DNA of 57,191 bases from Candidatus Omnitrophota bacterium (GTDB lineage: Bacteria; Omnitrophota; Gorgyraeia; 1-14-0-20-64-10), in NCBI GenBank assembly GCA_023248155.1, contig JAHFFE010000002.1:197673-254863 (forward strand), read 5' to 3'. Positions 2,374 to 54,476 of the stretch are shown piece after piece. How positions within the stretch are numbered: position 1 is the stretch's first letter; each line of letters begins with the position of its first letter. The notes beneath the pieces were generated by a model. It was not told where the DNA came from. It did no database searches and worked only from the letters and a program-made list of their open reading frames with translations. The position numbers and the translations under genes are program-made.

Positions 2374-2551
2374 GCGTCGATTCTCGCGTTCACGCCGTGA
2401 CAAGCGCAGAACGCAGATCCACTTAAAAGCTGCTTCCGTGACGAAGTGTTCTCAGTGTGCTTCGCCGTTGGTGACGCACCAGATCTGCACGGTCTGCGGT
2501 TATTACCGCGGCCGCGCCGTGGTTGCCGTTAAAACCAAGAAATCCGCGTAA
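2360..2551 (+). CDS. rpmF: 50S ribosomal protein L32
   Basis: PLPKRRFSRSRRDKRR N-terminus plus a CxxC...CxxC zinc ribbon. I moved the start from the track's 2342 to ATG 2360, which is preceded by GAAAGGAG. Confidence 0.9.
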   Translation: MPLPKRRFSRSRRDKRRTQIHLKAASVTKCSQCASPLVTHQICTVCGYYRGRAVVAVKTKKSA

Positions 2552-2559
2552 AAAACTCC

Positions 2560-17875: not shown

Positions 17876-18714
17876 ACGATTCCCGCTGCGTTGATCTGCA
17901 CCTGCACACCTGCCGTTCCGACGGAACTTTTACTCCGCAAGAATTAATTGAGCGGGCGCGCGCTCTCAATCTGGCGGCCATCAGTATTACCGACCATGAT
18001 ACCGTCGCTTCCGTTGCGGAGCTCGAGCAATGGCGTGTCTGGGCCGGCAGCGAGATGGAAATTATTTCCGGAATCGAACTGACGGTTTCATTCCGCAACC
18101 GCGAACTGCATTTACTCGGGTACGGTTTTTCGGTGGATGATGCGCCGCTGCTCGCGTTTCTGGAATCGGCGCATGCGCGCCGTCTTGAACGGCTGCGCGC
18201 GATGCTCGAACAGCTCCGCCAAAAAGGAGTTGTTCTTTCGTGGGATGAATTAATGGAGGTGGCTTCGGAGAGCCGTTCTCCGGGCCGTCCGCATCTGGCC
18301 GAGCTGCTGGTTCGCCGCCGCGTGGTCGGTTCGTTGAAAGAAGTTTATGACCGTTTCCTCGGAGATTCCGCTTCCTGTTTTGTCCGGATGGTCGATACGA
18401 CCGTCGAAGAAGCCTGCCGTCTGATCCGCCAGGCCGGCGGCGTTATTGTGCTGGCGCACCCGTTCCATTTGGTCCGCGATGAATGGTGTCCGGAATTGGC
18501 CGCGCAGGGTGTTCAGGGTGTGGAGGCGTACCATTCTGATCAGAGTTCTTCGGTGACGCTGTTCTACCAAAAAGTGGCCAGAGAATTAAATTGGATCGAT
18601 ACCGGCGGTTCCGACTGCCACGGATTTCGCAAGTCGAAAGGTCCGCTGATTGGAACGGTGCCGGTTCCGTACCGTTGTCTCGAAGCGATTCGTCAAGTGC
18701 AACATGCCGCATAA
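17872..18714 (+). CDS. PHP-domain phosphoesterase (TrpH/YciV-like)
   Basis: [12 protein letters not shown] and [12 protein letters not shown] metal-binding motifs, with C-terminal GGSDCHG. Confidence 0.8.
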
Positions 18715-19819
18715 CCCTGAATTGGTTTATATGAAAGAAGCGTTGCGGCTGGCCGCGAAAGCGCGCGGCAAGACTGCGCCCAATCCGATGGTCGGTGCCG
18801 TCGTTGTGAATGACGGAAAGATCGTCGGCCGTGGTTTTCACCCCAAAGCAGGGCAGCCGCATGCCGAAATTTTCGCGCTGCGCCAGGCCGGCAAAAAAGC
18901 GCGCGGCAGCACGCTGTATGTTTCGTTGGAGCCGTGCGCGCATACGGGGCGGACGCCGCCCTGTACCGATGCAATCCGCCGCGCCGGGGTTCGCCGCGTT
19001 ATTGCCGCGATGATCGATCCGAATCCCATTACGCGCGGCCGCGGTCTTGCGCAATTAAAACAGCAGGGAATTTTAACCCGGGTGGGTCTTCTAAAAAACA
19101 AAGCACAGCGCCTCAATGCCGATTTTATCCGCAGAATGAACCGGACTCGCCCCGAGGTGACGCTGAAGATCGCGCAATCACTGGATGGAAAAATCGCGAC
19201 GCGCACCGGACAGTCGCGCTGGATTACCGCTGCTCCGGCGCGGAACTGGACGCATCGGCTGCGTGCGCAGATGGATGCGATTTTAATCGGCATCGAAACC
19301 GTTTTAAAAGATGATCCGCGCCTGACCGTTCGCGGCGCGAAGTTCGGCGCGAAACCGGCGCGGATTGTTCTCGATTCCCGGCTGCGGATGCCGCTCTCCG
19401 CCCGGATGTTGAAGGATCGCGGCGGCCGCGTCTGGATTGCCGCTCTGCCGGGCGCTTCTCTGCAAAAAGAGAAACAGCTGCGCGCCGCCGGCGCCGAGAT
19501 ACTCCGCGTTCCGGCGCGACAGGGTCGGATTGACCTCACAAAATTAATGGAATTGCTGAATGCCCGCGGCATCCATCAGCTGTTGATTGAAGGCGGCGGC
19601 GAAACTGCTGCTTCGGCGCTCGATCAGAAACTGGTCGATCATCTGGTCTGGATCATTGCGCCTAAAATCATCGGCGGCCGCGCCGCGGTTCCGTCCGTCG
19701 GCGGACTCGGCGCCGCCACGCTCGAGAAAGCGGTTGTTTTACGCCGCTGGAAGATCCGTCCGCTGGGCCCGGATATTTTGGTGACAGCCGATTTCAGCGG
19801 TACAATAAGTAAGAGATGA
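18704..19819 (+). CDS. ribD: bifunctional riboflavin-biosynthesis deaminase / reductase RibD
   Basis: Deaminase zinc motifs HAEIFAL and PCAHTGRTPPC, plus a reductase C-half. I chose ATG 18704 as the start; the track's 18650 lies inside the PHP gene. Confidence 0.9.
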   Translation: MPHNPELVYMKEALRLAAKARGKTAPNPMVGAVVVNDGKIVGRGFHPKAGQPHAEIFALRQAGKKARGSTLYVSLEPCAHTGRTPPCTDAIRRAGVRRVIAAMIDPNPITRGRGLAQLKQQGILTRVGLLKNKAQRLNADFIRRMNRTRPEVTLKIAQSLDGKIATRTGQSRWITAAPARNWTHRLRAQMDAILIGIETVLKDDPRLTVRGAKFGAKPARIVLDSRLRMPLSARMLKDRGGRVWIAALPGASLQKEKQLRAAGAEILRVPARQGRIDLTKLMELLNARGIHQLLIEGGGETAASALDQKLVDHLVWIIAPKIIGGRAAVPSVGGLGAATLEKAVVLRRWKIRPLGPDILVTADFSGTISKR

Positions 19820-20709
19820 GGAATCCACGGATGAAAAACCGGTTTTGGCGATTCAGCGCTGTTGCGATCGTTGGTTTTCTCTGTTTGTCCGCTGTTCCGG
19901 CGCGTGCGGTGAATCCTGGGGCGGCAGACGCCTCCGATTCGGAACGGTTGAGAATTCTTGAAGAAAATACCCGCCGTCATATGGAAGAAACGCAGAAAAC
20001 CCTCGATGAGTTCAAGAAATCGCAGGAACTTCATCGCAAAACGCAATCCTGGGTGGATCAGATTTTCGCGTTGATCAAAGAAAAAAAATATGCCGAAGCC
20101 CGCCGCATCGTCGATCAATGGGCCAAGGAAGACCCTTCCGATACGCAGCCGTCGCTGTTGCGCAAAACGCTGATGCGTCTTGATTCCGAACCCGATGAGC
20201 AAAAGCGCCAGCAAATTTTAATGGACTACATCAACGATACGCTTTCCGGAATGAACGACTCAGTAGAAAAAATAAATTCCAATTTAGACAAGATCAACGA
20301 GAAAACGGCCGATTTTCAGCCCAAGAATGCCAATGAAGAATTGGGGCTGGCCGTCGCGTCGGGAGATAAGCCGCTGGTCCGAAAATTGCTGGCTCAGGGC
20401 GCCGATCCGAACGCGAAAGACCGATGGGGCATGATTCCGATAGAAACGGCCGCGCGCAACGGAGATGCCGAGGTGCTGCGGTGGTTCATCGAGCGGAAAG
20501 CCGATGTCAACGCAAAAGGAATGATGGGACTTACGCCGTTGATCTCCGCTGTCAGTTCCGGTTCGGAAGAAAAGGTCCGGATTCTTCTAAAAGCCGGCGC
20601 CGATCCCAACGCGAAAACCGAGACCGGAGTTACGGCGCTGAAACGGGCGCAAACGCTGGGACAGAACGCCATCGTCGAACTGCTTAGAAACGCCGGCGCG
20701 ACGGAATAA
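19816..20709 (+). CDS. exported ankyrin-repeat protein
   Basis: Signal peptide FSAVAIVGFLCLSAVPARA, a helical region, then about 4 ankyrin repeats (e.g. GMIPIETAARNGDAEVLRWFIERKADVNAK, GLTPLISAVSSGSEEKVRILLKAGADPNAK). An ATGA overlap joins it to the ribD stop. Confidence 0.8.
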   Translation: MRNPRMKNRFWRFSAVAIVGFLCLSAVPARAVNPGAADASDSERLRILEENTRRHMEETQKTLDEFKKSQELHRKTQSWVDQIFALIKEKKYAEARRIVDQWAKEDPSDTQPSLLRKTLMRLDSEPDEQKRQQILMDYINDTLSGMNDSVEKINSNLDKINEKTADFQPKNANEELGLAVASGDKPLVRKLLAQGADPNAKDRWGMIPIETAARNGDAEVLRWFIERKADVNAKGMMGLTPLISAVSSGSEEKVRILLKAGADPNAKTETGVTALKRAQTLGQNAIVELLRNAGATE

Positions 20710-20719
20710 TCGCTTCATC

Positions 20720-21295
20720 ATGTTTACCGGAATTATCCAATCGCTCGGCCGGGTTTCCTCGGCGAATAAGGGGCGATTGATCCTCGAACGGCCCTCCGGT
20801 TTTTCCGCTCTTTTATCCGGTGAAAGTATTGCCGTCAACGGCGTTTGTCTGACGCTGGAACGGGCCGATTCCAAAAAACTCTTTTTCCGATTACTGCCCG
20901 AAACGCTGCGCGCCACCACGCTGGGCCGGCTGAAACCGGGGCAGCCGGTCCACCTGGAACGGGCGCTAAAACTGGGCGATCGTCTGGGCGGGCACTGGCT
21001 TTTGGGTCATGTCGACGCGCAGGTGAAGTTGAATGCCGTCCGCTCGGCCGGCAGTTCAAAATCATTGGAAATTTCTTTTCCCGAATCGCTGCGGCCGTTT
21101 TTAGTTGCGAAAGGGCCGGTCGCGCTCGACGGCGTCAGCTTGACCGTGGGCGATTCCGTCGGAAAAAACCGATTTTCGGTCCACTTGGTGGCGCACACGC
21201 TTAAATCAACACGGCTGGGATCCAGGCGGACCGGTGATTTTTTGAATCTTGAATTGGATCTGATCGTGAAATATTTGCATGGAATACTGGCTTGA
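20720..21295 (+). CDS. ribE: riboflavin synthase (alpha chain)
   Basis: MFTGIIQSLGRV N-terminus and two lumazine-binding repeats (GESIAVNGVCLT / GPVALDGVSLTV). Confidence 0.9.
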   Translation: MFTGIIQSLGRVSSANKGRLILERPSGFSALLSGESIAVNGVCLTLERADSKKLFFRLLPETLRATTLGRLKPGQPVHLERALKLGDRLGGHWLLGHVDAQVKLNAVRSAGSSKSLEISFPESLRPFLVAKGPVALDGVSLTVGDSVGKNRFSVHLVAHTLKSTRLGSRRTGDFLNLELDLIVKYLHGILA

Positions 21296-21792
21296 AGCGT
21301 CAGCGCCTGCCGCGTTCGTGGATTGGCCTGGTGGCGCTTTTACTGGCGTTGGCCGGGCTCTGGCCTTCGGTATCGAAGCCGCAGCCCGTCGAGACGCAGC
21401 AGGCAGTCGTGCGGCGCGTCTCCGATGGAGACACCGTGGTCTTGATCGATGGCCGCCGGGTGCGGTACATTGGAATTGATACGCCGGAGCTGCACCATCC
21501 GACCAAGCCGGTCCAGTATTACGCGCGCGAGGCCGCCGAGTTCAACCGGCAGCTGGTCGAAGGAAAACAGGTCCGTATCGAATATGATCTTGAACGGAAA
21601 GACAAATACGGCCGGACATTGGCTTACCTCTATTTGCCCGACGGCACATTCGTCAACGCCGAACTGGTCCGGCAGGGGTACGCGCACACGCTGACGATTC
21701 CGCCGAACGTGCGGCACGCGGACGAATTTACGCAATTGCAGAGAGAAGCGCGTACGGCGCGCCGCGGATTATGGAACAAACAACGACAATGA
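21292..21792 (+). CDS. exported thermonuclease (SNase-fold) family protein
   Basis: N-terminal hydrophobic leader. SNase motifs VSDGDTVVL...VRYIGIDTPE...KDKYGRTLAYLYL...VNAELVRQGYA. The TTG start overlaps the ribE stop. Confidence 0.85.
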   Translation: MKRQRLPRSWIGLVALLLALAGLWPSVSKPQPVETQQAVVRRVSDGDTVVLIDGRRVRYIGIDTPELHHPTKPVQYYAREAAEFNRQLVEGKQVRIEYDLERKDKYGRTLAYLYLPDGTFVNAELVRQGYAHTLTIPPNVRHADEFTQLQREARTARRGLWNKQRQ

Positions 21793-23021
21793 ATAAAAAA
21801 ATTGCAGCGCTGATCATGGGGTATGGAATTCTCGCGGCCGGGCTGACCGGGTGCGTGAAGCGCGTCATTTTAATCGACTCCAAGCCGCCCGGCGCCGGCG
21901 TCTGGATCAATGAGCATTATGTCGGCAAGACGCCGGTTTCGCACGAATTCATCACGCACGGCCGGTATAAATTCCGCCTGGAAAAAACCGGTTTTCGCGA
22001 ACTGACCGCGCGCGAAATGATTAAGGCGCCGGTTTACGAATGGATTCCGTTCGATTTCTTTTTTGAGAACCTGATTCCGACGAAACTTGAAGAGAAACAT
22101 GCATTCCAATACGCGCTGGTTCCTCAGCCGCCGGCAGAATTGCTGGAGCCTGACACCGGTAAAGATCCCGCTCCGTGGGTGGCGCAATTGTCCGACGCGC
22201 GGCCGGCACTCCGCCGTGAGGCGGCTGTCGCGCTGGCCCGTTTGCGTGCGCCCTCCAGCGTTCCGGCTCTTGAGAAATCGACGCACGATGCAGAATCTTC
22301 CGTCCGAATCGCGGCAGTGGCCGCTTATCGGGCCGTGGCCGGGCCCAAGGCCGCTCCCCGCTTAATCGAGATGCTCGCCGCCGATCCTGATGCCGAGGTA
22401 CGTTGGCAGGCCGCCGCGCAGCTGGAAGCGCTCAAAGAACGGTCCACCGTTCCCGCGTTAATCGCCGCGCTCAATGATCATTCCGGCTTGGTGAGGGTTG
22501 GGGCGGTGGAAGCGCTCACGGCCATCGGCGACCCGGCCGCCGTTGAACCGCTGATCAAAACGCTCGCGGACAAAGATACGTCAGTTCGCCGTTCCTCCAC
22601 GATGGGATTGGGAAAACTGGGCGACCGCAGGGCCGTTCCTGGTTTGAAAACAGTTTTATTCCGCCATGATTTTGAGACGCGCCGCCGCGCCGTTAAATCG
22701 CTGGCGCGGCTGAAAGATCCGTCCTGCACGATCGCGCTGGTGCGCACTTTCGCCGACTACGATCCGGAAGTCCGCCAGAATGCCACCGACGCGTTGATCG
22801 AGTTCGGCGACCGTTCCCAAGCGGTGCCTCTGCTGATTCGCTATCTCCGTTCATGGCAGCCGGTCACGCGTCAACATGCGGCGATTGTATTGGGCGCCAT
22901 GAAAGATCCGCGCGCGCTGGCGCCGCTGCGCCGGCAGGTGGTCCGCGAATCCAACGAGGCTACCCGCGTTGCGATGGCCGAAGCGATCCGCCAGATCGAC
23001 GCCTCAGCCCACTCAACCTAG
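21789..23021 (+). CDS. lipoprotein with a PEGA-like N-domain and HEAT (PBS-lyase-type) repeats
   Basis: Lipobox LTGC. PEGA-like segment IDSKPPGAGVWINEHYVGKTP. There are at least 6 repeats of the form D.D..VR..AA.AL. An ATGA overlap joins it to the nuclease stop. Confidence 0.7.
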   Translation: MNKKIAALIMGYGILAAGLTGCVKRVILIDSKPPGAGVWINEHYVGKTPVSHEFITHGRYKFRLEKTGFRELTAREMIKAPVYEWIPFDFFFENLIPTKLEEKHAFQYALVPQPPAELLEPDTGKDPAPWVAQLSDARPALRREAAVALARLRAPSSVPALEKSTHDAESSVRIAAVAAYRAVAGPKAAPRLIEMLAADPDAEVRWQAAAQLEALKERSTVPALIAALNDHSGLVRVGAVEALTAIGDPAAVEPLIKTLADKDTSVRRSSTMGLGKLGDRRAVPGLKTVLFRHDFETRRRAVKSLARLKDPSCTIALVRTFADYDPEVRQNATDALIEFGDRSQAVPLLIRYLRSWQPVTRQHAAIVLGAMKDPRALAPLRRQVVRESNEATRVAMAEAIRQIDASAHST

Positions 23022-27746: not shown

Positions 27747-27776
27747 TTGGCATTTTTGCCCTTAATAATGTATAAT
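27747..27776 (+). promoter_or_regulatory. putative sigma70-type promoter of the giant-protein operon
   Basis: TTGGCA (27747-27752), an 18-nt spacer, then TATAAT (27771-27776) inside the AT-rich 135-nt xerD-27865 spacer. GGAAGG lies about 9 nt upstream of the TTG start. Confidence 0.4.
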
Positions 27777-27864: not shown

Positions 27865-30800
27865 TTGTACCGCTTTTTTGCGGGCTTAATAATCCTTTCG
27901 CTAATCCTGCCGCCGCAGTCTGCCTGGGCTCTCCGCGCGGTCTCTGCGAAAGAATCGGCCGGCCTGAAACAGCTCGCCTCCGGATTGGAGGAGAGGATTG
28001 GTTCTCCGGATTCCGACGCTACTGATGCCGAGTTGCTTCGTCAGCTGGATAGTCATCCTCAAACGGATTCCGCCGGACATCCTTACATGAAGACCCTCAC
28101 AGATTTCCATTCGGCTGTGGCGGAACCGCTGTTGAAAAGAAACTCAGGTTTAACAGATTTAGACCGGGACCGCCTGATAAAAACGGTTCTGCCGGGGTTC
28201 AGAGGAGAGATCCGGTTGTTTGATTTAAGTTTTCTGGTGGTTCCCGTCCGCCTGAACACCGATGGATCGATTGACATCGCGCGCCAGGTTCTTGAGCAGG
28301 CGCCGGCCGATCTGTTAATCAATCTGTTTACAAGCTACGACACGGCGGCGCTTCTGCGCTGGGCGGAAATAAACTTGAAGCAAGTGACGCCGTCACCGGC
28401 CATCGGCCGTTTGGAGCGGTTTGTCGCCGGAGGCGCCGATCGCCAAGCAAAGAAAAAAAAGACAAGCCGTCCTTCGGAACCAAAATCCCGGCCGGCGGAT
28501 ACGCTTCCCGCGGCGGAGCAGTTGACTACGGATCTTTTCCTGGGAGATGGGGTAGATTTGGCGGATACGCTTTCCTCCGCCACGCTGGAACTCGGTTTGC
28601 AAGCGCTGCTAAGAGATTCTGATTTGCCGGAACCGCCGCCCGCCGCGGCGGCCGAGCCGGCGTTGCCGCCGCCGGTACCCGGGACGGTGATCAGTTCCTC
28701 TGGACAATTAAAAACGGAAATGGCGCGCCGCGTCCGGGATCTCCATGCCGGAATAATCCCGGACAATATGGTGGTAATGACCGGCAACGGTTTCGACCAG
28801 GACCAGATCAAAATCTCTGTTGGCGCTTTGCCGGGCGCGCCTATTCAGACCGAGGTATTGATTCTTCCGGGACTTTCTCAGCCGGGCGTGTTCCTGCCCG
28901 ACCCTAGAACCGGTTCCGCTTCATCCCTCCCATACCGGATTGTCTGGGATCCGAAGCCTGTTCTGGAGGCATTGAGAAAGAACGTTGTTTTAGAGGAAAT
29001 GAGGGGAATGATGCGGGGGGATATTCAGAGAGCGCAGGACAGCATGCCCTGGCTGAATCGGCTTCTCGATACCGCCGAGCGGCTGTTGGCCGATCAGGGT
29101 GAAGAAGCCCGGATTCAGAACGCCAGAGCGGCTCAGCCGAAGATCGATCAACTGCTGAAAGTTGTTTCGGAAAAAGAAGAGGAGTTTTATCGGCTCTACG
29201 GCCGGTTATCGAGCGTGCTGATCGAGCTGAAAGAACAGGCCGATGAAAATGGCGAAATCCCAAGTGAGTTGGCCCAGGCCCGTTTACAGGAGTTGGCCAC
29301 GCTGTTTTCGGCTTACCCGCGGGCCGAGTACGGCATTCTGGATATTGTCCGGACACTGCCGCAGCAAGATGCCGTATCGCTCCGCGATATTGAAAATGCG
29401 CTGTCGGGCACGAAGGTATTTCTTCAGCGGAATCATAAACAGGAGATTTCCGGCCAGCTTCCCGCCGAAATCATCCTGAATTTTTACCACGACGCGAAAC
29501 GGATTGCGAACAGGCGTTATCTTCAGCAATTGAAACTCCGTTTTCAAGCCGCCGGCGAGGACCCCTCCGACTCCGACCGGGAAGCTGTTTCTCAATTCGC
29601 GTTGGCGGTTTTGTCGGAGGAGACCGGCCATCTGATTTCTAATTGGATATCGAGCAGCCAGGATCGCGCAGGATCGCCGGCCCACCCTCTGCCGGTTTCC
29701 GTGCTGGGCGTGGGGTTTCTCAACGCTCAAAACCAGATGCGATTTATTCCGGGCGGGTTAGTGGAGTACGACATTCCGGCGCAAAGAGAGTTCCATTGGT
29801 CGGCGGACCGGGTTCTTCCCTCCTATCAGGCCGGCGACCGGATCGTGCTGATGCTTCCTTCGCATACCGGCGGGCTGACCCAGAATCAGTTCCACGCGTT
29901 CTTTGAGGGTTGGTTTTACCTGATGAACGAGAATCCGGAGATTCCCGAAATTCTGCTGGCGATCGCCGAAGAAGACGGATCGATCCGTTTGTTACGGCCG
30001 CGCATTCCCGAGCGAGGCAAAGAGGCCTGGGCCACCTTGGCCCGTATTTCAAATGAAATCAACGCCTGTTATCAAACTTCCGCGGAATGGATCAGCCGGA
30101 TGAAAAGTTCCGGATCGAATGCCTGGCTGGTTAACAACATGCGCGCGGCCGGCTCTCTTTTGTCGGTTGCCCAGAAGGCGCAGTCAAGCGATATGTCCGG
30201 AAGAGAATGGTGGATTCGCCGGTTCCGGGTCTCGGAACTCTTTCTCGCTGAGGTTTCTTCTCTTTTTGGGCCGGATGCCGCAGAGGCCGTCAGGGAACAG
30301 TGGAAGGCCGATCCTCGGCACGCAAAAACATTAGAAGATTTGCGTGACCGGCTTAACCTTCCGGATATCGAACAGAAAAGGCCCAGAGAAGTTGCCGCGA
30401 TTCGCCAGCGGGTCAGTTACATCGGCCGAACACCGGAAGATCTCGGTTATGTTTTCGCACCGTTGATTGATTTGGCGGTGGCCGTTGTTGAGGAACGGCA
30501 GGGGGTCGACCTGTTGAACACCCCCTGGATGTTTGAAGAGGTTCCGCTGTTTCCGAATGAGCCGAAACCGGAACAAAAGAAAAAAGATTGGTTTGCCGAA
30601 ACCTGGGCTCTATGGAAGAAAGAAGACCGGTTTCGAAAAAATCCAAGATTTGGCAAGGCAGAAGATGCCGAGCCATTTGCCCGAACCTGGGTGGCGGAGC
30701 GGGTCGCCAAAGCGGTTGATGGGAAAGATCCTGAATTTAAATGGATCGATTTTTCCAAAGCGCTGGAAGCCCACCGGAAGCAGGAGGCCCGGCGCCGGGA

Positions 30801-33800
30801 AGAGATGCGCCAGCGCGTGGAGCAGATGAAATCAGCCGCTGTTACGGCCGCGTCTCCTGAGTCGACCCCTGCTCAACAGACGGAGACGCTGGAACAGTGG
30901 GGCGTTTTGTCCGCCGAATTGACCTCTTCAGAAAGAGCGGAAGTCGAACCGGCGCTGGCCCCGGCGGCCCAGCGGCTGACGCGGCCGCATGGCGCCTGGG
31001 CGCTGGCCGGTTGGGCGCTTAATCATGGGCTGTTTGAACCGGAGTTGCCGGTTTCCAAACTGTTGACTCGGTTGGCATCGCAGTTTCCAACCGGTTCAAA
31101 AATCCGAGACCATGTTTTGATGCGCAGAAATATCGCAGACTTTAATGAAAAAGAAGCTGAGCGAAAAAGCCGCGACGGATCCTCATCGGCTTCGGTTGTT
31201 CCGGCAAAAAATCAAGTTCGGGTTCCTTCGGAAACGCTCGCCGATCTCCTGTTGCTGGCCGAGCAACAGTTGACCGATCTGGACCGCCTGCTTCAGCCAT
31301 TTCCAGAACAACAAGCGGTTATCCGGGAACAGCGCCATTGGGTGCGCAACCTCTGGACAGTGGAAGAGGTGGCTCGGTTGGGCCGCTCGGGCGTCGCTGT
31401 TGACGCCGGTTCGATTCGGATTACTTTCGGCTATTTGGATCGGTTTTCCGCTGATCTGGAACCGGATTTGTTGGAGGCCGTTCATCGATTATCGGGGAGA
31501 TCGGTCCGGCGATGGGTGGATCTCGATCAGAAAAGGATTCATGCGGCTGTTTCCGAATCGATGGCTGCCGGCGATATGCAGGCCGCCTATGCCGATTTGC
31601 TGGCATTGGATCAAACAATGGCAGCTGACGCCCAGATGCTTCGCCAACAGGGCTTTACTCAGGGGGCTTCTGTTTTGGAAACAGCGCGCGTTTCTCTGGC
31701 AATGGCGCTGGCGGCCACCGAAGGGATTCAGAAGAGCGAAGCTCTGGCGAGCCGAGTGACCGCCGATAGCGGTACCGCCGTTCATGCCGAATTGGAAGTC
31801 AACCAGCGGCTTCGTATTCAAGCTGGCCTGGGCTGGATCAGCCGCCTGAACGAAGCCCGCCGCCGCTTGCTGGACCGGTTCTCCGGGGAAGTCGAGCGGA
31901 CCGCTCGCGACCGAATGGCCTCTGTCAATTCGCTTTCCTTTGAACAGGCGGAGGCGCTAAATCGGTCGATCCAGGAAGGAATGGCGTCTCTATCCGAATT
32001 TTCCGACCTGGCTGGCCGCAGGACCGCGCTCTCGGAACTTCGTCAGCAGGTGCGCCGCCGCGCGCTGGCCAGCCCGCAGCAGCCGCCCGCGAAGGCCGCC
32101 CGATTTATTCTTGCGCAGGATGCGTTCCAGACGGCGTTAATCCAGGATAAGGATGTTCGCGCCTGGCTTCGTTCCGTGGCGGAAGGAGATTCCCCAAAAA
32201 ACACAGGAGTTCTTTTACCTCGCGTGACTCGCCAGAGAGCGAAGGGTTCCGGCATTACACAGGAATTCTACACGGCGGTGGAAAATCTGATGAACCCGTC
32301 CGCACCGGAGGCTGTTACCCCTGAAACGATTGTGGAACCAGAAACACCGCCGGAGTCATCAGCTATTTCCACGGAATCAGCGGCGATTGTTTCGGAGCCG
32401 GAACCCGAGCCGCCCGTAGTCATCGTTGCGCCGGTAGTACCCGAAATTTCATCGGCTGCCGTGGAACCGGTTGTGGTGCAAGAACTGGTGCCGGAGCCTG
32501 TTGTAACATCGGAACCGGAATCGCCCCCGGTTGTCATCGTATCGGCGCCCATTGTTGCCGTGCCGGTTTCTACAGCCGTTCTTCCCGCGTCCGAAACCAG
32601 GTGGAAATCCCAAGAAGTTACACTGTTGCCGGACAATTATGTTCGGATAACAACTGCAGATCCAACAGACCTCGTGCAGATGGAGTTTGGCGGCAGGGAA
32701 TGGCTGGGAGTGAAGACTTACCCGGTAGAAAGGATTAATGTAGTCACCTCAAAACATCTGATTCCGGTATCCGGCAATGAACTAGCGGCGGCCGCGCTGG
32801 CAACGGGAGACTGGCGGCAGGCTGCTTCTCTGTTAGGACGGGAGGAAAAACACCAAAAGGCTCACGAAGGGGAGTGGGTTAACAACTCGGTCTTGGTCTA
32901 TGCAGGGGTTGATGACAGGTTCGGCATTGAAAATGAGATTTACTTTCTTTCGCCGGAAGATCTTCAACGGATGCGAGAGGATTTAACTGTGATCACCGGC
33001 AGCCGTAAAACCGGAGCTCTCGGAAAGCAGCGCTTTTTTGAAGCGAGGGCTGTACGGCTCACCGTTCGGTTTAACTCTGAAGATCGGGTTGGAAGCGTCA
33101 TACCGGTGACCGTATTTAACTCGCGTCAACAGTACGGCAGCCCGGTGATTGGAACGGCAGACTCGCTTGGACCGCTTCCGCAATTGCCCAAAACAGTTTC
33201 GTCCCAGATGGTTTCAGCTTCATCGCCTGTTTCGGTCTCTGCGGCTGCGGTTGTGTCCCTATCGCCTACAAAACAAAAACAGCTGTCGAGAGCCGAGCAA
33301 ATAGCGGAGAACAATAATCGGCTCGAGCAATCCCGTGATCCTCAAGAAGTAGCCCAGGTACTGCTTTCCGACGCGCGGTTTTCCCCGGCGATCGATGAGA
33401 ATTTCCGGGTTCCTTCCGAGGACGGCGCGGGCAATCTCCGGTCGTGGCTGGAATCGGTTCGAGATCACAAGACCGATGTTAATCTTGCCAGACAGCTTCA
33501 AAGAACCCGGGCGGCCGTTGATTCGGTGGAAGGCAACAACCGTCAGTTGTTTTATCAGGCATTCGACAGTATGCTTCCATTCGCGTTACAGGAAGCGGGT
33601 GCCAGCGCCGCCGAAAATACTTCCGCTGGTCTGGAAGAAAAGACAATGCCGGTGGCGCAGTTTGAAGAGGAGTACGGAAAACTTTTGGCTGGGCTGAACG
33701 CGGAACATTTGGCCGACCTGAAACACGCGGGCGCCGACTCGGTTATCGTGATTCCGCTGACCGGACAACTGCCGCTTTATGTACAGGGATCGGATTTGTT

Positions 33801-34110
33801 GAAGGCTGTTCGCGATGAGTTTGCCGGCAAACTGGGTGGCGACCGGTTCGCTCCGGAATTAATTACCGAAACTATTGCGTGGCAGAAAATTGGATTGGTC
33901 TTGAAAGATGAAACGCTGGATGAACTCCCATTAAATCCAAACGCACTCCCTATCAGGGACAGTTCCGCTGATAAAATCAATGAGCTGGACCCCGTAGAAT
34001 TGTTGCTGGAGATTTTTAAATCCCATTTGCCGTCCGATTCCGTCCATATGGGTGAAATGCTGTTGACCGATCAATCGGGCCAAACCTATCTGGTTTTACT
34101 TTCCGCATGA
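27865..34110 (+). CDS. giant exported protein P1 (2,081 aa), AGxEE-delimited family, no recognisable catalytic domain
   Basis: Uninterrupted 6.2-kb ORF. Signal peptide ...LPPQSAWA|LRAVS and leader ending in SGLEE (27979-27993). A Pro/Glu/Val linker lies around 32290-32590. AGLEE (33625-33639) precedes a 156-aa terminal module. Confidence 0.8.
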   Translation: MYRFFAGLIILSLILPPQSAWALRAVSAKESAGLKQLASGLEERIGSPDSDATDAELLRQLDSHPQTDSAGHPYMKTLTDFHSAVAEPLLKRNSGLTDLDRDRLIKTVLPGFRGEIRLFDLSFLVVPVRLNTDGSIDIARQVLEQAPADLLINLFTSYDTAALLRWAEINLKQVTPSPAIGRLERFVAGGADRQAKKKKTSRPSEPKSRPADTLPAAEQLTTDLFLGDGVDLADTLSSATLELGLQALLRDSDLPEPPPAAAAEPALPPPVPGTVISSSGQLKTEMARRVRDLHAGIIPDNMVVMTGNGFDQDQIKISVGALPGAPIQTEVLILPGLSQPGVFLPDPRTGSASSLPYRIVWDPKPVLEALRKNVVLEEMRGMMRGDIQRAQDSMPWLNRLLDTAERLLADQGEEARIQNARAAQPKIDQLLKVVSEKEEEFYRLYGRLSSVLIELKEQADENGEIPSELAQARLQELATLFSAYPRAEYGILDIVRTLPQQDAVSLRDIENALSGTKVFLQRNHKQEISGQLPAEIILNFYHDAKRIANRRYLQQLKLRFQAAGEDPSDSDREAVSQFALAVLSEETGHLISNWISSSQDRAGSPAHPLPVSVLGVGFLNAQNQMRFIPGGLVEYDIPAQREFHWSADRVLPSYQAGDRIVLMLPSHTGGLTQNQFHAFFEGWFYLMNENPEIPEILLAIAEEDGSIRLLRPRIPERGKEAWATLARISNEINACYQTSAEWISRMKSSGSNAWLVNNMRAAGSLLSVAQKAQSSDMSGREWWIRRFRVSELFLAEVSSLFGPDAAEAVREQWKADPRHAKTLEDLRDRLNLPDIEQKRPREVAAIRQRVSYIGRTPEDLGYVFAPLIDLAVAVVEERQGVDLLNTPWMFEEVPLFPNEPKPEQKKKDWFAETWALWKKEDRFRKNPRFGKAEDAEPFARTWVAERVAKAVDGKDPEFKWIDFSKALEAHRKQEARRREEMRQRVEQMKSAAVTAASPESTPAQQTETLEQWGVLSAELTSSERAEVEPALAPAAQRLTRPHGAWALAGWALNHGLFEPELPVSKLLTRLASQFPTGSKIRDHVLMRRNIADFNEKEAERKSRDGSSSASVVPAKNQVRVPSETLADLLLLAEQQLTDLDRLLQPFPEQQAVIREQRHWVRNLWTVEEVARLGRSGVAVDAGSIRITFGYLDRFSADLEPDLLEAVHRLSGRSVRRWVDLDQKRIHAAVSESMAAGDMQAAYADLLALDQTMAADAQMLRQQGFTQGASVLETARVSLAMALAATEGIQKSEALASRVTADSGTAVHAELEVNQRLRIQAGLGWISRLNEARRRLLDRFSGEVERTARDRMASVNSLSFEQAEALNRSIQEGMASLSEFSDLAGRRTALSELRQQVRRRALASPQQPPAKAARFILAQDAFQTALIQDKDVRAWLRSVAEGDSPKNTGVLLPRVTRQRAKGSGITQEFYTAVENLMNPSAPEAVTPETIVEPETPPESSAISTESAAIVSEPEPEPPVVIVAPVVPEISSAAVEPVVVQELVPEPVVTSEPESPPVVIVSAPIVAVPVSTAVLPASETRWKSQEVTLLPDNYVRITTADPTDLVQMEFGGREWLGVKTYPVERINVVTSKHLIPVSGNELAAAALATGDWRQAASLLGREEKHQKAHEGEWVNNSVLVYAGVDDRFGIENEIYFLSPEDLQRMREDLTVITGSRKTGALGKQRFFEARAVRLTVRFNSEDRVGSVIPVTVFNSRQQYGSPVIGTADSLGPLPQLPKTVSSQMVSASSPVSVSAAAVVSLSPTKQKQLSRAEQIAENNNRLEQSRDPQEVAQVLLSDARFSPAIDENFRVPSEDGAGNLRSWLESVRDHKTDVNLARQLQRTRAAVDSVEGNNRQLFYQAFDSMLPFALQEAGASAAENTSAGLEEKTMPVAQFEEEYGKLLAGLNAEHLADLKHAGADSVIVIPLTGQLPLYVQGSDLLKAVRDEFAGKLGGDRFAPELITETIAWQKIGLVLKDETLDELPLNPNALPIRDSSADKINELDPVELLLEIFKSHLPSDSVHMGEMLLTDQSGQTYLVLLSA

Positions 34111-37100
34111 GGAAGATATCCGTTTTATTACTGGTCGCGTTTCTGGCCAATTCTATTCCTGCGTACGCATTGCGCGTCGAGCAGCCGGAACATCCTGCTT
34201 CCCAATTCACTCTGGCGCGACGACTTAATGACTCTTCCGGGTTGGAAGAAGTCAAACCTCTGTGGACCACTGATCTGGGAAAAAACCGGATTTGGCAAAC
34301 GAGTTTACTGCCTGGAGCCCAACGCCGGATCGCGGCCATCACAACAACATTTCTTCATATCGGAGATCTTCAGGAATCACCGGTGCCAGCGTTGAATTTG
34401 AAGACGGTTTCTTTGCAACTAAAGTCGTCCGAAAGTTATCGAGGCATGGTCGTCGGCCCTGTCACCGATTCCGGCAATCAATTTCTAGCCATGGGATCAA
34501 CCAGCGGCAGAGTGGTCGTCCGCGACCTGAATTCCGAGGATGCTCCTACTGTTGTTTTAGGCGACACCAGGAGTTTTCAGGCCAGCGGCAGTGTGGCGAT
34601 TGATCCCGACGGAAAAACTGTATTTGTCACAGGAATAAATTCTCGGGTTCACGCCTGGAATATGGAGACGCAGACAGCGGTTCCCAATCATCCGACAGCT
34701 TCTTTTTTTGAGCCGGACTCCAATGAAGCGAAATTCATTCAGGACTCGGACAAGCGGTTGACGGCGCTCACGGGCAAAAGCCAGATTCAGATATGGGATT
34801 CGCGAGATCAGACCGGATGGCGGTGGCGGCCGTCTAAGTTAGGGGATTTGTCTGTTTCGCAATTCAGCCGCACCGGAAAATTGATCGCGGTTGCTCAGAA
34901 CAATGTTATTCATCTTTTTCCCACGGATGACCGGGATAGAGTCAGGACTCTTAAAGAGGCGCGAATGGGGAAAGAAATAACCAGCCTTGCCTTCAGTCCT
35001 GATTCCGAGTATTTGATTGCGGGGGACAAACGGGGCATTCTTCACATGTGGAATATTGCGAGTTCGCGCGCGACGGAATCCAACGCCCAAATTCAGGCGC
35101 ACGAGGGGCCGATCTCTTCGTTGTTTTTTTATACCGACAAACTATCGGGCCGTACCGCCCTGGTTTCGTCCGGCCATGACGGCAATGTCAAAGCGTGGGA
35201 CTTGGCCGCCTTGATTTCCGCCGGGCTGGAAGAAGATCTGCCGGATGAATTAGTGAGGGCGACTTTTTCGGGGGAAAGAGTTCCTGTGCGGGTTCTCGAT
35301 CTGGCGAGGGATAGGCCGTTCTTCAACGCGGTTTACACCGCGCCCGATGAACAAGTTAAAGGGTTTGTCCCCATCGCTCGTCTTTTTCATGATCCTGGAG
35401 AGCGAATGCGAGTCAACCAAAAATGGGACCGTCTAATGGCCAACGGTGATGAGCCGATCATGGCCCGGGTTGATTTGCAGGGCGGAGAGTTGCATTTTTA
35501 TCCCGATCTGGAGCTGAACGCGCTGGACAGCGCGCTGAATCGCTTACTGACCGATGTGGAAAAGATGGTTGGCGCATCTCCTCTTGGTCTGCCTGCTCAG
35601 GTAGTTAAGCGGGTCACCGGAGGGAAAGGGGCCGAGGTCCTCTATCGGCTCGAAGATGGCAGTGGCCGCGGGGGGCGCGGCTACCTAACAGTTGCTGGAG
35701 ACTACTCCAACTGGCTCCAGCAGCAAATCGGACATGAGATCCGCGTCACTCCGGTAGGGGTCGACCGCGACAGGAGCGAACGGCAGGTGATTTTCCGGCC
35801 CGCCGGATTGCCGTTGAACAAAGGTGCTTTGCTGGAGCAGAAACTGCTTGAGAGATCGGTGCCATCCGATGAAATTGAGAGCTTTCTTGATCGGCAGTTA
35901 CTTCAGGACAGGGAACTGCCGAAACTGTTGATCCCGATTTACGAGCATAGCCGTTCCCGCGTATGGAGAAATATGACGCGTTCGCACCGGCTTGCGGTTT
36001 TGCGCTGGCTGGCAGGCAGAAGCGATTCCGCCGATGCCGACCTGGCCGGCTGGTTGTTCCACATGTTTGCTCGGGCCTCGAAGGATCCAATGCATGGGCG
36101 GACCATCCAGGCCTGGGCTCTGCGCGGCATGGCGGGTGCCGCTCGAGATGACGCGCAAACGGAAACCGCGCGGCAAAGCGTCGAAGCGTGGTTTCAGCGG
36201 ACGCCTCTTCCCGAACCGAAACACACGGCGATTCTGGATCCGGTCGTTTATGAATTGTTCGGGTGGCCCCAAGATGCCTACGCGCTTTCTTTGGATGTCC
36301 AAGCCCGTTTCTCCGCGGGCCAGGAAGAAAACACCGCGGCCTGGGACGCTCTGCAGGACAAGATCAATAAGGAGACTCCAATCAAAGTGCGTATTGGGGA
36401 GGTTCTCCACGCCAGTAAAAGTGTAGCCATCCGTTATAGCCATGATGGAGAAGATCTTCCTGGAGTAATGCCTTTTCCTGCTATAGAAAACCTTCCATCA
36501 TCTTACTTGGCGGATTTGTTCTTGCTTCAAAAAGGGCAGGAAATCGATGTTCTTCCAAAACAGATTATCATCGACGACTTAAACCGGAAGCAATTCACTG
36601 CTTTTGTGGGAATTGCTGAATTTGATTTTCTGGGTCAGCGCCTGCAGGCGATACGAGAAATTCAGCGGGCTGCGGCCAGTGGTGTGGAAATTGAAATGGA
36701 ATTATTAGGAGTAGTGAATAAAGAAAGAGGAGTTGTTGCATTCAAATATCAATCGTCTGCTGGAGACGTTGTTTTTAAAACCTATTTAAGCCGGTTTTTC
36801 TCAACAGGAGTAACTGGAAATTATCCTGTTCACACTGTGAATAGTTGGGTAGCGTATCATACCGGGAAGAGTAAAAGAGTAAAAATTATTCCGACGGAAT
36901 TTCAAAAGGGCGGCTCTTACCCGCAGGTTTATTTCAAGGTGAACCTGTCTAACGAGGAGCTGAATCAGGAAATTTGGCATGGACGGGCTGAGCTTAAGCA
37001 GAAGTTTGATCAAGGTCATACGGTCGATTTCGGAGTGGAATGGTTTTCTCATAACAGCGTGCAAGTCTTTTATATTGGAGAACAGGGATGGGCGCGAACG

Positions 37101-38735
37101 ATTGTTCCCATGAGTTTGCTGTTTGATGCTTCAGAGCAGGTTTCGCTGGATGATACCCAGGAGTGGGTTTTGCGGAGTGTCGGTGATTTATGGAGAGGGG
37201 TTCCATTGGTTTCCAACAGAGACGGTTCGGGCTATCCTATCGTTGGTAATCCCAAATTTTCTGCTCGTCGGGCATTAGATCAAGTAGAACCGGCTCTTCA
37301 AGAACTGCGCGAAATGGCTGGACGATCGGTTCCTCCGGAAATTACGGTCATCGCGCGAATGGCCAATTCCAATGGATTGGCCGTTCTTTATGAAGGGAAA
37401 AATGGTTCATGGAAAAGAGGATATATTGATATTCGCGAGGTTAAGCCAACCGGCGCAAGTCCTGAACAGCGTCGCCAGTGGATGAATCAAGCCATAGACC
37501 GCAAAATCCACGTTACGCTCAGAGCAATCAAAACCCCAGAATCTTCCACCAAGGTATATTTTTCCTGGCCGGACCCTGAGCGGGATTTGCACGATGATTT
37601 TGGCGCCGGGATACTTGGCGCCGGCCAGGAAGAAGCGTATGCCTATATGGGTCGCTTTATGGATAAAGATCCTTTGGTGCGCCGTGCCGCGCGCAATGAA
37701 TTGTTGAGACGGGGTGACGCCGCCATACCGATTGTCATCGAACTGTTTGGATTGATAAGTAATTCGCGTATTGAAATGGTTCAAACCGTTCGCGTGCTGG
37801 CCGCCGAAAATCCTTCATTTATTTCTCATGTCATAGAGCCGATCCGCCGGCATCTGGATGGAGATCCTGAATGGGGAAGTTATACTCCTTTGCGTAACGC
37901 ATTAATGACGCTCTCTGCGCTGAGTCCGGAGCAGGCTTCTGACGCGATTCCGTTGCTGGAGCGGTTGTTATCGAGAGAAGAACGCAACCGTGTTATAGGA
38001 TTCGATCCCGACTTTAGCAATCAAGGACATACCTGGTCGGTCTGGATATTTCCCTATGCGTTTCAGGCAATTCGCCAACTTTCTTCCAGTCGATATAATG
38101 AAATGCTTGCCCAATGGACTGTTTATAAAAATTCTGGGCCGGAAATTTACAGATTCTTGGTGAATTCTATTCTTGAAAATCTTGAACGGATCGATCAGGA
38201 AAGAGGCATTCCGCACGCCGATGCGTGGGCTTCCACGGAACCGTTGATTGAGGCGGCTGTTCAGCCGGTGCATCAGCTGGCCGAGCAGGAAAAGCCGCTG
38301 ATTGTACTGGTTAGATCCGATATGGTGCGCGGCGATCGGGAGGATATTCCTTGGGAACAAATTTCCAGACAGTTGTCGGAATTAACCGGCTATCCGTCGA
38401 TTCAGGTCGATGATTCTTCTTCATCTCGAGTGTTGGGATATCAGAGAAGCGGAAATACAATCATTCATCTGGTTCCGGAAGATTTTCCTGCAGGGTATGA
38501 GCGTGTTATGCTCAACACGGTCCGCGTGAAATTAGGCACGAATAAGGATGTTGAGAGGGACATGTTTAGTATTGAGCTGCATGCGTTACCGGGTGTCATT
38601 ACCGGTGCGTTGGCGCACTGGCAACAGTATCAAAACGAAGCACAAATTCCTGTTTTTAACGCAATTCCATATATGAATTTGAACCTGCTTTCCGCGGCCG
38701 ATGTCTGGCAGATTCTCGCCGATCAGTTTGCGTAA
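34107..38735 (+). CDS. giant exported protein P2 (1,542 aa): WD40-like propeller + S1/OB-like repeats + HEAT-like region, AGxEE-delimited family
   Basis: An ATGA overlap joins it to the P1 stop. Signal peptide ...NSIPAYA|LRVE with SGLEE at 34236-34250. WD-type blades are visible (e.g. GHDGNVKAWDL, GDKRGILHMWNI). About six S1-like modules follow, with AG[LQ]EE at 35220, 36315 and 37620. Confidence 0.8.
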   Translation: MRKISVLLLVAFLANSIPAYALRVEQPEHPASQFTLARRLNDSSGLEEVKPLWTTDLGKNRIWQTSLLPGAQRRIAAITTTFLHIGDLQESPVPALNLKTVSLQLKSSESYRGMVVGPVTDSGNQFLAMGSTSGRVVVRDLNSEDAPTVVLGDTRSFQASGSVAIDPDGKTVFVTGINSRVHAWNMETQTAVPNHPTASFFEPDSNEAKFIQDSDKRLTALTGKSQIQIWDSRDQTGWRWRPSKLGDLSVSQFSRTGKLIAVAQNNVIHLFPTDDRDRVRTLKEARMGKEITSLAFSPDSEYLIAGDKRGILHMWNIASSRATESNAQIQAHEGPISSLFFYTDKLSGRTALVSSGHDGNVKAWDLAALISAGLEEDLPDELVRATFSGERVPVRVLDLARDRPFFNAVYTAPDEQVKGFVPIARLFHDPGERMRVNQKWDRLMANGDEPIMARVDLQGGELHFYPDLELNALDSALNRLLTDVEKMVGASPLGLPAQVVKRVTGGKGAEVLYRLEDGSGRGGRGYLTVAGDYSNWLQQQIGHEIRVTPVGVDRDRSERQVIFRPAGLPLNKGALLEQKLLERSVPSDEIESFLDRQLLQDRELPKLLIPIYEHSRSRVWRNMTRSHRLAVLRWLAGRSDSADADLAGWLFHMFARASKDPMHGRTIQAWALRGMAGAARDDAQTETARQSVEAWFQRTPLPEPKHTAILDPVVYELFGWPQDAYALSLDVQARFSAGQEENTAAWDALQDKINKETPIKVRIGEVLHASKSVAIRYSHDGEDLPGVMPFPAIENLPSSYLADLFLLQKGQEIDVLPKQIIIDDLNRKQFTAFVGIAEFDFLGQRLQAIREIQRAAASGVEIEMELLGVVNKERGVVAFKYQSSAGDVVFKTYLSRFFSTGVTGNYPVHTVNSWVAYHTGKSKRVKIIPTEFQKGGSYPQVYFKVNLSNEELNQEIWHGRAELKQKFDQGHTVDFGVEWFSHNSVQVFYIGEQGWARTIVPMSLLFDASEQVSLDDTQEWVLRSVGDLWRGVPLVSNRDGSGYPIVGNPKFSARRALDQVEPALQELREMAGRSVPPEITVIARMANSNGLAVLYEGKNGSWKRGYIDIREVKPTGASPEQRRQWMNQAIDRKIHVTLRAIKTPESSTKVYFSWPDPERDLHDDFGAGILGAGQEEAYAYMGRFMDKDPLVRRAARNELLRRGDAAIPIVIELFGLISNSRIEMVQTVRVLAAENPSFISHVIEPIRRHLDGDPEWGSYTPLRNALMTLSALSPEQASDAIPLLERLLSREERNRVIGFDPDFSNQGHTWSVWIFPYAFQAIRQLSSSRYNEMLAQWTVYKNSGPEIYRFLVNSILENLERIDQERGIPHADAWASTEPLIEAAVQPVHQLAEQEKPLIVLVRSDMVRGDREDIPWEQISRQLSELTGYPSIQVDDSSSSRVLGYQRSGNTIIHLVPEDFPAGYERVMLNTVRVKLGTNKDVERDMFSIELHALPGVITGALAHWQQYQNEAQIPVFNAIPYMNLNLLSAADVWQILADQFA

Positions 38736-54331: not shown

Positions 54332-54476
54332 TTCTAGTTGTTAGCAGAAACTATTTCTACATATCCTATTGACGCGGACTCCTTTGTAGTAGATACTTCC
54401 ACTGACGGCAACCAACTCCTTTCGGTTTGCTTATTTTTTTAGAGTATTCCTGGGGAGTTTTAAAAAGAGGTGACTA

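Follow-up and report, generated by a model that had tools for sequence, protein, structure and literature searches.

Three long open reading frames (ORFs), here called P1, P2 and P3, are encoded in a window of 57,191 nucleotides (nt) from a Candidatus Omnitrophota bacterium (assembly GCA_023248155.1, contig JAHFFE010000002.1, positions 197,673 to 254,863 of the forward strand; by the window we mean this whole stretch), and we see roughly an even chance that their first segments (27865-27993, 34107-34250 and 50822-50980) encode the N-terminal leader cassette of a modular exported protein family. In the architecture that we propose, a signal peptide ending in [AS]-[YWFL]-A↓L-[RK] (the arrow marks a predicted cleavage point) would be followed by a spacer of 0-33 amino acids (aa), by the motif [AS]-G-[LQM]-E-E, by n cassettes each closed by the same motif, and by a C-terminal cassette. 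The leader is, as we read it, 'cassette zero' of this architecture, consisting of signal peptide, A-L-R and spacer and closed by the first junction, and the family appears to be specific to, and confined within, one lineage of high-GC groundwater Omnitrophota.

In all three giants, the Sec-type signal peptide ends in [AS]-[YW]-A↓L-R and is followed by a short spacer and then by S-G-[LQ]-E-E. The features of a type I signal peptide are present, namely a charged n-region, a short uncharged h-region and a helix breaker with small residues at -3/-1: the hydrophobic cores are FFAGLIILSLIL (12 residues) in P1, ISVLLLVAFLA (11) in P2 and FFAALLAVAQIFCVTV (16) in P3, with uncharged runs computed at 14, 11 and 11 residues respectively, and the c-regions read PPQSAWA↓L, NSIPAYA↓L and TPSYA↓L. 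An earlier note on this DNA had quoted leader strings that are exact translations, and the hydrophobic core and A-x-A site that it had recognised belong to this canonical n/h/c anatomy with its small -3/-1 pair. By Kyte-Doolittle hydropathy the N-terminal h-region is the only transmembrane (TM)-like segment of P2, P3 and most relatives. P1 has one further strongly hydrophobic segment, a Pro/Val/Glu-rich low-complexity stretch within its large cassette (aa ~1490-1580, window 32330-32600; PEPEPPVVIVAPVVPE...), which is probably no TM helix. Codons of the shared leader residues differ synonymously among the three leaders, which indicates that constraint acts on the protein.

The other exported proteins of the window (SodC, a nuclease, an ankyrin protein, two lipoproteins and the pair at 54477/55610) have neither L-R nor G-x-E-E, and signal-peptide ends among them read A-S-A↓AQ, A-R-A↓VN and G-Y-A↓DG. 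We define the family by a signal peptide, [AT]-L-[RK], one or more copies of [AS]-G-[LQM]-E-E in the next 40 aa or so, and the same motif at internal cassette borders. P1, P2 and P3 show these features, and the ankyrin protein at 19816 does not: the earlier note had taken it for a weaker look-alike, but its leader contains no A-L-R or xGxEE and gives no match at E<=10 to the leader profile.

Using a hidden Markov model (HMM) built from the three window leaders, we searched 1.84 billion (1.84e9) representative proteins and obtained 12 matches at E<1e-3, all at N-termini and with E-values from 1e-5 to 1e-20. They are P1, P2 and ten others; P3 is probably unlisted because P0003 represents its cluster. 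Each of the ten further carriers opens with a basic n-region and an h-region, continues with P-x-[AS]-[YF]-A-L-[RK] and a short spacer, and then shows AGLEE or SGMEE, often twice. A second HMM, made of 13 sequences and applied to 10,945 ORF segments of the window and 87 fetched loci, separated true matches (E<=3.5e-4) from noise (E>=0.31), and within the window only the three giants match. Independent leader matches were found in the Omnitrophota genome or metagenome loci L006 (E=2.5e-9), L007, L009, L017 (5e-9), L087 (two) and L092. The earlier note would have counted its reading as refuted had further leader-bearing proteins been missing together with any predicted cleavable signal peptide, and such proteins exist: with the window giants, the ten carriers and the related Omnitrophota loci, 22 leaders could be compared.

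Among these 22 leaders, [AT]-L-[RK] is present in every one and is directly preceded by [AS]-x-A in 20, which read [AS]-x-A↓L-[RK]. All 22 have an n-region with 1-6 K/R before the h-region (P1 just one, R3, if the TTG at 27865 is its start), 9-21 uncharged residues in a row form the h-region, and a Pro lies 4-7 residues before the predicted signal-peptidase site. The distance from A-L-R to the first junction motif is 0-33 residues, so that the spacing of about 17 aa given in the earlier note holds for P1 and P3 and not for the family, and the spacer is mostly acidic. Tandem junction motifs, 5-10 aa apart, occur in leaders (AGLEELQQSLAGLEEE, SGLEENLSAPAAGLEEL).

Carriers were met only in one groundwater Omnitrophota clade and in groundwater-type metagenomes. 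The MiaB-like protein of the window is 60-69% identical to those of metagenome-assembled genomes of groundwater Candidatus Omnitrophota, some of them labelled Planctomycetia, and the source genomes of the 22 leaders have 53-64% GC. A narrower leader pattern was found at 2 loci in JGI metagenomes, and a scan of GTDB species representatives with P2 gave no relative. Word-index searches, which missed long members known to exist, returned only P1 itself for P1, two fragments for the leader profile, and P0008 with one fragment for the C-terminal profile.

A six-frame scan of the window for [AS]-G-x-E-E gave 11 sites, nine of which read [AS]-G-[LQM]-E-E and lie, without exception, within the three giants (P1 aa 39 and 1921; P2 aa 44, 372, 737 and 1172; P3 aa 60, 453 and 1015); the other two are an SGSEE in an ankyrin repeat and a site in an antisense frame. 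Shuffling of the giants gives an expectation of 0.05 sites against the nine observed, the other window genes (12,678 aa) contain none (Fisher test, giants versus other genes, P=9e-6), and the motif rate is 1.87 per 1000 aa in the giants versus 0.012 in control ORFs of unrelated loci that total 590,000 aa. Across 53 distinct family sites, the residue before the Gly is A/S in 47 and the residue after it is L, Q or M (37/11/5), followed by E-E; A/S/T/L are weakly preferred at -2, with little conservation before that position and none after E-E. The Gly, Leu and Glu codons vary synonymously at the nine window sites and the flanks are unconserved, which rules out a signal at the RNA or DNA level (an in-frame Shine-Dalgarno-like GGAGGAG, internal starts or a recombination site). 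The earlier note had placed SG[LQ]EE at the end of a leader-specific pro-region; counting internal recurrences, it occurs twice in P1, four times in P2 and three times in P3, and is a general inter-cassette junction. The comparisons show this grammar of leader and junction to be family-specific and under purifying selection. In locus L009, the carrier ORF (18487-20813) seems to go on in another frame from about 20274 (..PSKPAGLEEVESL..), and this frame change near a junction motif is a frameshift or an assembly error.

Pfam assignments place the motifs between domains. In P3, a double cupin lies between sites 1 and 2, a 2-hydroxyacid dehydrogenase between sites 2 and 3 and an unknown module after site 3, and in P2 a WD40 propeller lies between sites 1 and 2. 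The homology blocks that BLASTP detects between members likewise begin and end at a junction motif. P2 371-743 corresponds to P0011 4747-5121 (75% identity), with motifs at about P2 372 and 737 and P0011 4749 and 5116, and P1 1920-2081 corresponds to P0006 4505-4666, with motifs at about P1 1921 and P0006 4507. P3 has four blocks in common with P0003, namely its leader and three cassettes, and P0003 has three additional cassettes, each bounded by motifs, one of which is an alpha/beta hydrolase; the P2 ortholog of L092 contains the same cassettes in another order and number. In these alignments the junction motifs demonstrably coincide with the apparent evolutionary borders of the cassettes. 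Multi-domain cassettes of 1,900-3,200 aa (WD40, immunoglobulin (Ig)) have no internal motif, and the motif is therefore not a generic domain linker.

Relatives carry GNAT, a pyridoxal-phosphate (PLP)-dependent enzyme (PALP), alpha-amylase, HATPase_c and an acyl carrier protein (ACP)-like domain, and the tabulation of cargo that the earlier note had proposed gives WD40, cupin, 2-hydroxyacid dehydrogenase, GNAT, PLP enzyme, amylase, ACP and HATPase domains. Members range from 0.2 to 5.5 thousand amino acids (kaa), and the minimal one, P0008 (222 aa), consists of the leader and a C-terminal cassette only. The large cassette of P1 has no detected homologue outside the leader/junction family. P0006 and P0011 (4.7-5.5 kaa) contain Ig I-set domains (P0006 aa 736-816) and two to three tandem unknown modules of ~1,000 aa (P0006 aa ~950-3400; P0011 likewise), which are distant kin of that P1 cassette at 22-24% identity. 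A universal C-terminal domain was considered and rejected: the C-termini fall into classes a, b and c without detectable homology to each other (hhalign, Prob <1%), and none of the classes conserves a Cys/His/Ser set suggesting an autoprotease. An AlphaFold2 (AF2) model of the class-c C-terminus is an alpha/beta sandwich, with a predicted local distance difference test score (pLDDT) of 80 in one of five models, and a Foldseek search of the PDB with it gave no match better than E=0.09.

The positions of the carrier genes are conserved and their content is not. In a congener (LigA 84% identical in nt), the same three loci (xerD-P1-P2 and pgsA-pgpA-P3) hold carriers of 4666, 2753 and 2160 aa made of different cassette sets; the gene order is SodC-AcyP-LigA-lipoprotein-XerD followed by the carriers of 4666 and 2753 aa, and PgsA-PgpA followed by P0003 of 2160 aa. 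In other relatives, the pgpA site is occupied by P0007 with HATPase_c cargo, by a carrier of 526 aa (L017) and by one of 807 aa (L007). No full-length carrier follows pgpA in L006, L008, L011, L012 and L013, and L010 ends before the site; in L006 the site holds a leader-only relic of 66 aa and then a toxin-antitoxin pair. The comparison indicates that cassettes are gained, lost and rearranged between congeneric genomes while the chromosomal sites stay the same, and carrier loci with toxin-antitoxin pairs are typical of a variable island. Such pairs (PIN, AbiEii-like, AbrB/RelE-like) adjoin carriers or the relic in L006 (12437-13300), L002 (2495-3159 and 6533-7418) and L087 (1912-2537).

We propose that the hydrophobic leader would target the nascent chain to Sec, probably co-translationally, that signal peptidase I would cut before L-R, and that a putative dedicated endopeptidase would recognise the junction motif, trim the short pro-peptide and separate the cassettes. 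The products would be secreted pre-pro-polyproteins with cargo exchangeable cassette by cassette. This combination of Sec export, a signal peptidase I cut before L-R and junction proteolysis is deduced from sequence, and we judge it about equally apt to be right or wrong. With its small -3/-1 pair, a bond G↓L would be compatible with cutting of the signal-peptidase-like or the double-glycine type, the internal [AS]-G↓ could be read as a double-glycine site, and the E-E of the motif would fit a Glu-specific enzyme. The sorting or pro-peptide signal suggested in the earlier note survives as a conserved element with carriers in relatives, but it is the N-terminal cassette of a polyprotein and not a free-standing tag; we infer that a sorting or processing enzyme may act on it once Sec export has taken place. 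A bolder proposal, which we offer tentatively as possible rather than probable, is that [AS]-G-[LQM]-E-E is the recognition site of a putative dedicated processing enzyme and that the family is a 'plug-and-play' secreted-polyprotein platform. A fixed leader at fixed chromosomal sites would then export any cassettes that recombination places behind it, cytoplasm-type enzymes included; once outside the cell they would be freed by the junction protease, perhaps to reach the surface or the interior of prey or host cells.

Several results weigh against processing of this kind. Neither the window nor the sequenced flanks of relatives revealed a peptidase gene or a candidate reader enzyme for the leader element, and no peptidase domain was detected in the family members scanned. 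Many cargo domains are of cytoplasmic type and need NAD, ATP, acetyl-CoA or PLP (2-hydroxyacid dehydrogenase, HATPase_c, GNAT, PALP, ACP). The AF2 model of whole P3 has a mean pLDDT of 33 and could not place the junctions in disordered linkers. Export studies in E. coli have established that Sec substrates seldom have a basic residue at +2. In L007 and L092, L-R lies 10-17 residues downstream of the h-region, and L-R may be more than, or other than, the +1/+2 of signal peptidase, a signal in its own right: it is possibly recognised independently of the signal-peptidase site because it is displaced in these two leaders and because A-L-R is present twice in P0003. The two displaced leaders (L007 12850-13050 and L092 18453-18680) have a common insert, ..PE.SRR[AT]-LR, between h-region and L-R. 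An HExxH in P0005, considered as a protease candidate, has no Pfam or PDB support.

The same data could be read as an intact exported multi-enzyme or multi-adaptor scaffold, in which the motif is a non-cleaved connector (a partner-bound short linear motif, a hinge or a cap) and the leader is a signal peptide with the first connector. The negative protease searches favour such a scaffold, as does the conservation profile of the motif, absent after E-E and slight before -2 as in many short linear motifs; the 10 residues on the N-terminal side of the junctions are modestly enriched in P/S/T/G/A/Q (0.49 versus 0.39 overall), and the giant proteins of Omnitrophota are described as membrane-associated multi-enzyme assemblies. 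We nevertheless consider it unlikely and favour proteolysis over a passive connector, because an invariant 5-mer joins unrelated folds, a situation more typical of an enzyme recognition site, and is absent at the domain borders inside cassettes, where it is evidently unneeded for domain linking; because a copy of the motif comes right after the signal peptide, a position that calls for no connector; and because the tandem motifs of leaders enclose no domain and fit redundant processing sites, unlike a structural hinge.

Other alternatives concern the leader itself. It might be an ordinary Sec signal peptide shared by paralogy after duplication of an N-terminal cassette, A-L-R being a signal-peptidase preference of the lineage without separate function. 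P1/P0006 and P3/P0003 are indeed orthologous pairs with nearly identical h-regions, and P1 and P3 have in common a 13-nt identical stretch coding R-F-F-A; yet other exported proteins of the same genome use the ends without L-R given above, [AT]-L-[RK] is invariant in the 22 leaders despite diverged h-regions and spacers and the wide GC range of the genomes, and L-R is kept when displaced from the h-region and doubled in P0003, all of which makes this account improbable. There is also a slight chance of an uncleaved signal anchor (N-in), by which the protein would be tethered to the membrane with its bulk outside and with A-L-R and the acidic spacer as a stalk. The h-region of P3, with its 16 hydrophobic residues, would suit an anchor, and a DeepTMHMM survey puts a TM helix or signal peptide in 93.6% of 916 long Omnitrophota proteins; against this, the cores of P1 and P2, at 11-12 residues, are below a membrane span, and 20 of the 22 leaders combine a Pro-containing c-region with a textbook small -3/-1 pair. 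That the motifs are short is all that speaks for a chance or compositional artefact, whose probability we regard as negligible in view of the shuffling and Fisher results, the E-values among 1.84e9 proteins and the clean separation in the local search.

Neither the leader nor the junction is covered by a Pfam or NCBIfam model: at E<=0.1, P1 has no match and P2 and P3 match in their cargo domains only, and none of the curated sorting tags (PEP-CTERM, LPXTG, GlyGly-CTERM, the C-terminal domain (CTD) of the type IX secretion system (T9SS), YSIRK, KxYKxGKxW and others) is matched in P1-P3. The segment behind the signal peptide is, as the earlier note maintained, conserved, family-specific and absent from these sorting-tag models. 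Membership in each known class fails on a defining feature. For the twin-arginine (Tat) signal, there is no (S/T)-R-R-x-F-L-K, with a single R in P1 (Y-R-F-F) and P3 (A-R-F-F), R-K-I-S in P2, and R-R-F-L in P0004 only. For lipoproteins processed by signal peptidase II, the +1 residue is Leu in 22/22 leaders and there is no lipobox Cys; true lipoboxes occur elsewhere in the window at 21771 (LTGC) and 26289 (MVGC). Double-glycine leaders of C39 substrates are excluded by the classical h-region of the N-termini and by the absence of Peptidase_C39 from the window. By Pfam, P1-P3 and seven relatives have no Peptidase_C80, RTX-type repeats or type I secretion signal as expected for MARTX toxins, and no RHS, PT-VENN, toxin families or immunity-like small ORFs, as expected for polymorphic toxins, were found in P1-P3 and the relatives scanned, the genes downstream of carriers being housekeeping genes or toxin-antitoxin pairs.

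In its logic, the proposed system resembles several known ones. Secreted bacterial pre-pro-polyproteins include the gingipains RgpA, Kgp and HagA of Porphyromonas gingivalis and the Atl autolysin of Staphylococcus, which similarly have an N-terminal Sec signal peptide, a short pro-region, several modules and a distinct C-terminal domain. They mature by endoproteolysis at defined inter-module sites, a step that is only predicted for the carriers, and each keeps to one conserved architecture that is cleaved at Arg/Lys or at one or two sites, whereas in carriers an acidic 5-mer flanks exchangeable unrelated cassettes; moreover, unlike gingipains, carriers have no T9SS CTD or peptidase detected with NCBIfam/Pfam. 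MARTX toxins of Vibrio and relatives contain a cysteine protease domain with which they cut themselves between their effector domains. They too are giant exported chains with strain-variable modules swapped by recombination, the modules being freed by linker cleavage, but they have a C-terminal type I secretion signal, RTX-like repeats, Peptidase_C80 and a Leu-X site where carriers have an N-terminal Sec leader and [AS]G[LQM]EE.

Polymorphic toxins such as CdiA with its VENN motif and Rhs with PxxxxDPxGL share with carriers a short peptide motif that marks the cassette-swap junction, and recombination hot spots with relics and neighbouring toxin-antitoxin genes; they differ in having one junction per protein (carriers up to seven) and a cargo of toxin plus immunity gene. 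The yeast prepro-alpha-factor, with its KR-EAEA spacers, and the cyanobactin precursor PatE, whose N-terminal protease site is G(L/V)E(A/P)S, have a comparable grammar of leader, site, cargo, site and cargo with tandem sites, and the G-L-E core of the junction resembles the PatA site, a lead only; their cargo consists of peptides of 6-13 residues in contrast to the folded modules of 150-3,200 aa in carriers, and no subtilisin-like PatA/Kex2 homologue was found near carriers.

For Omnitrophota themselves, West-Roberts et al. 2023 (bioRxiv 10.1101/2023.11.21.568195) proposed post-translational cleavage of giant proteins and stated the cleavage points to be unknown. The giant proteins of that preprint and of a second one (bioRxiv 10.64898/2026.06.07.730766) are 10,000-147,000 aa long, have numerous TM helices in most cases and contain C39/S8 peptidase domains. 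They share with the carriers the phylum, a signal peptide, metabolic or regulatory enzyme domains and proposed cleavage, and differ from them in that carriers have 0.2-5.5 kaa, a signal peptide only and an explicit junction motif. Term searches of both preprints gave nothing on a conserved leader, one match to 'cleavage site' in the 2023 preprint being left uninspected. The literature search returned no paper with the motif strings and no Omnitrophota paper mentioning polyproteins.

The window, with 56% GC, comes from a bacterial chromosome and is rich in housekeeping genes (SMC, LigA, an XerC/D-type recombinase, PNPase, FtsK, RodZ, a MiaB-like enzyme, PgsA, PgpA and riboflavin genes); the features of the three giants are collected in Table 1. 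The start of P1, taken as the TTG at 27865, is uncertain: its ortholog P0006 begins 8 aa upstream (MKTRRFIFLYRFF), and the in-frame equivalent of this region is present in the window with the CTG at 27838 as sole start candidate, which makes this upstream CTG a possible start. For P3, comparison with the ortholog P0003 makes ATG 50822 the probable start rather than 50789. Behind P3, two paralogous ORFs (54477-55613 and 55610-56257) stand in tandem; their signal peptides are almost the same (MKLSMFLTRVMVIGAAS..GYA↓DG), and neither ORF matches a Pfam family. A homologue of 225 aa lies between P0003 and LigT in the congener (L093 7989-8666), and a long antisense ORF (54431-55459) overlaps the first of the pair. 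The signal-peptide-bearing ankyrin-repeat gene at 19816 sits within a riboflavin operon, between ribD and ribE (18650-23021); next come genes for a secreted homologue of staphylococcal nuclease and for a PEGA+HEAT lipoprotein, and contig L001 is arranged alike.

Table 1. Positions of P1, P2 and P3 and of their predicted leader, junction and cassette features in the window.
Feature	Positions	Strand	Remarks
P1	27865-34110	+	long ORF, 2081 aa
P2	34107-38735	+	long ORF, 1542 aa; ATG overlaps P1 stop codon (ATGA)
P3	50789-54331	+	long ORF, 1180 aa; probable start ATG 50822 (M12)
Sigma-70-type promoter, near-consensus	27747-27776	+	TTGGCA-18-TATAAT, 11/12; AT-rich spacer 5' of P1; consensus match only
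P1 leader	27865-27993	+	translation M/L-YRFFAGLIILSLILPPQSAWA↓LRAVSAKESAGLKQLASGLEE; signal-peptide end also given as ..FFAGLIILSLILPPQSAWA↓LRAVSAKESAGLKQLASGLEE
P1 signal peptide	27865-27930	+	aa 1-22; n-region Y-R, h-region FFAGLIILSLIL, c-region PPQSAWA
P1 A-L-R motif	27928-27936	+	predicted signal-peptidase site between A22 and L23
P1 spacer	27937-27978	+	AVSAKESAGLKQLA; includes degenerate junction copy SAGLK
P1 junction 1 (S-G-L-E-E)	27979-27993	+	closes leader cassette
P1 cargo cassette	27994-33624	+	~1,880 aa; no Pfam/PDB match; 22-24% identical to P0006 and P0011 cassettes
P1 junction 2 (A-G-L-E-E)	33625-33639	+	P0006 homology block begins here
P1 C-terminal cassette, class a	33640-34107	+	75% identical to P0006 C-terminus
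P2 leader	34107-34250	+	translation MRKISVLLLVAFLANSIPAYA↓LRVEQPEHPASQFTLARRLNDSSGLEE
P2 signal peptide	34107-34169	+	aa 1-21: MRK / ISVLLLVAFLA / NSIPAYA
P2 A-L-R motif	34167-34175	+	
P2 junction 1 (S-G-L-E-E)	34236-34250	+	then WD40 propeller cassette
P2 junction 2 (A-G-L-E-E)	35220-35234	+	start of block common to P2 and P0011
P2 junction 3 (A-G-Q-E-E)	36315-36329	+	
P2 junction 4 (A-G-Q-E-E)	37620-37634	+	then cassette without listed Pfam match, then class-c C-terminal module
P3 leader	50789-50980 (50822-50980 from M12)	+	translation ..FARFFAALLAVAQIFCVTVTPSYA↓LRAVSPSESRPDLQTRLSGQEE
P3 signal peptide	50822-50914	+	from M12: MSRQNFSFAR / FFAALLAVAQIFCVTV / TPSYA
P3 A-L-R motif	50912-50920	+	
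P3 junction 1 (S-G-Q-E-E)	50966-50980	+	then double-cupin cassette
P3 junction 2 (A-G-M-E-E)	52145-52159	+	then 2-hydroxyacid-dehydrogenase cassette
P3 junction 3 (A-G-Q-E-E)	53831-53845	+	then class-b C-terminal cassette 53846-54328

The Omnitrophota, abundant and uncultivated nanobacteria that probably live as predators or parasites, are noted for their very long proteins. With its sizes of 0.2-5.5 kaa, a defined leader, a strict junction of 5 residues, clear borders and different cassette sets at the same loci, the leader/junction family offers a small and tractable model for the question of whether such proteins act whole or cut. If the proposed processing is true, the junctions would give the long proteins of Omnitrophota their first explicitly defined cleavage points, and the carriers would be a bacterial counterpart of viral and prohormone polyproteins; were it to be confirmed, the grammar of leader plus junction would constitute a new sorting and processing signal and a natural export system for arbitrary cargo.

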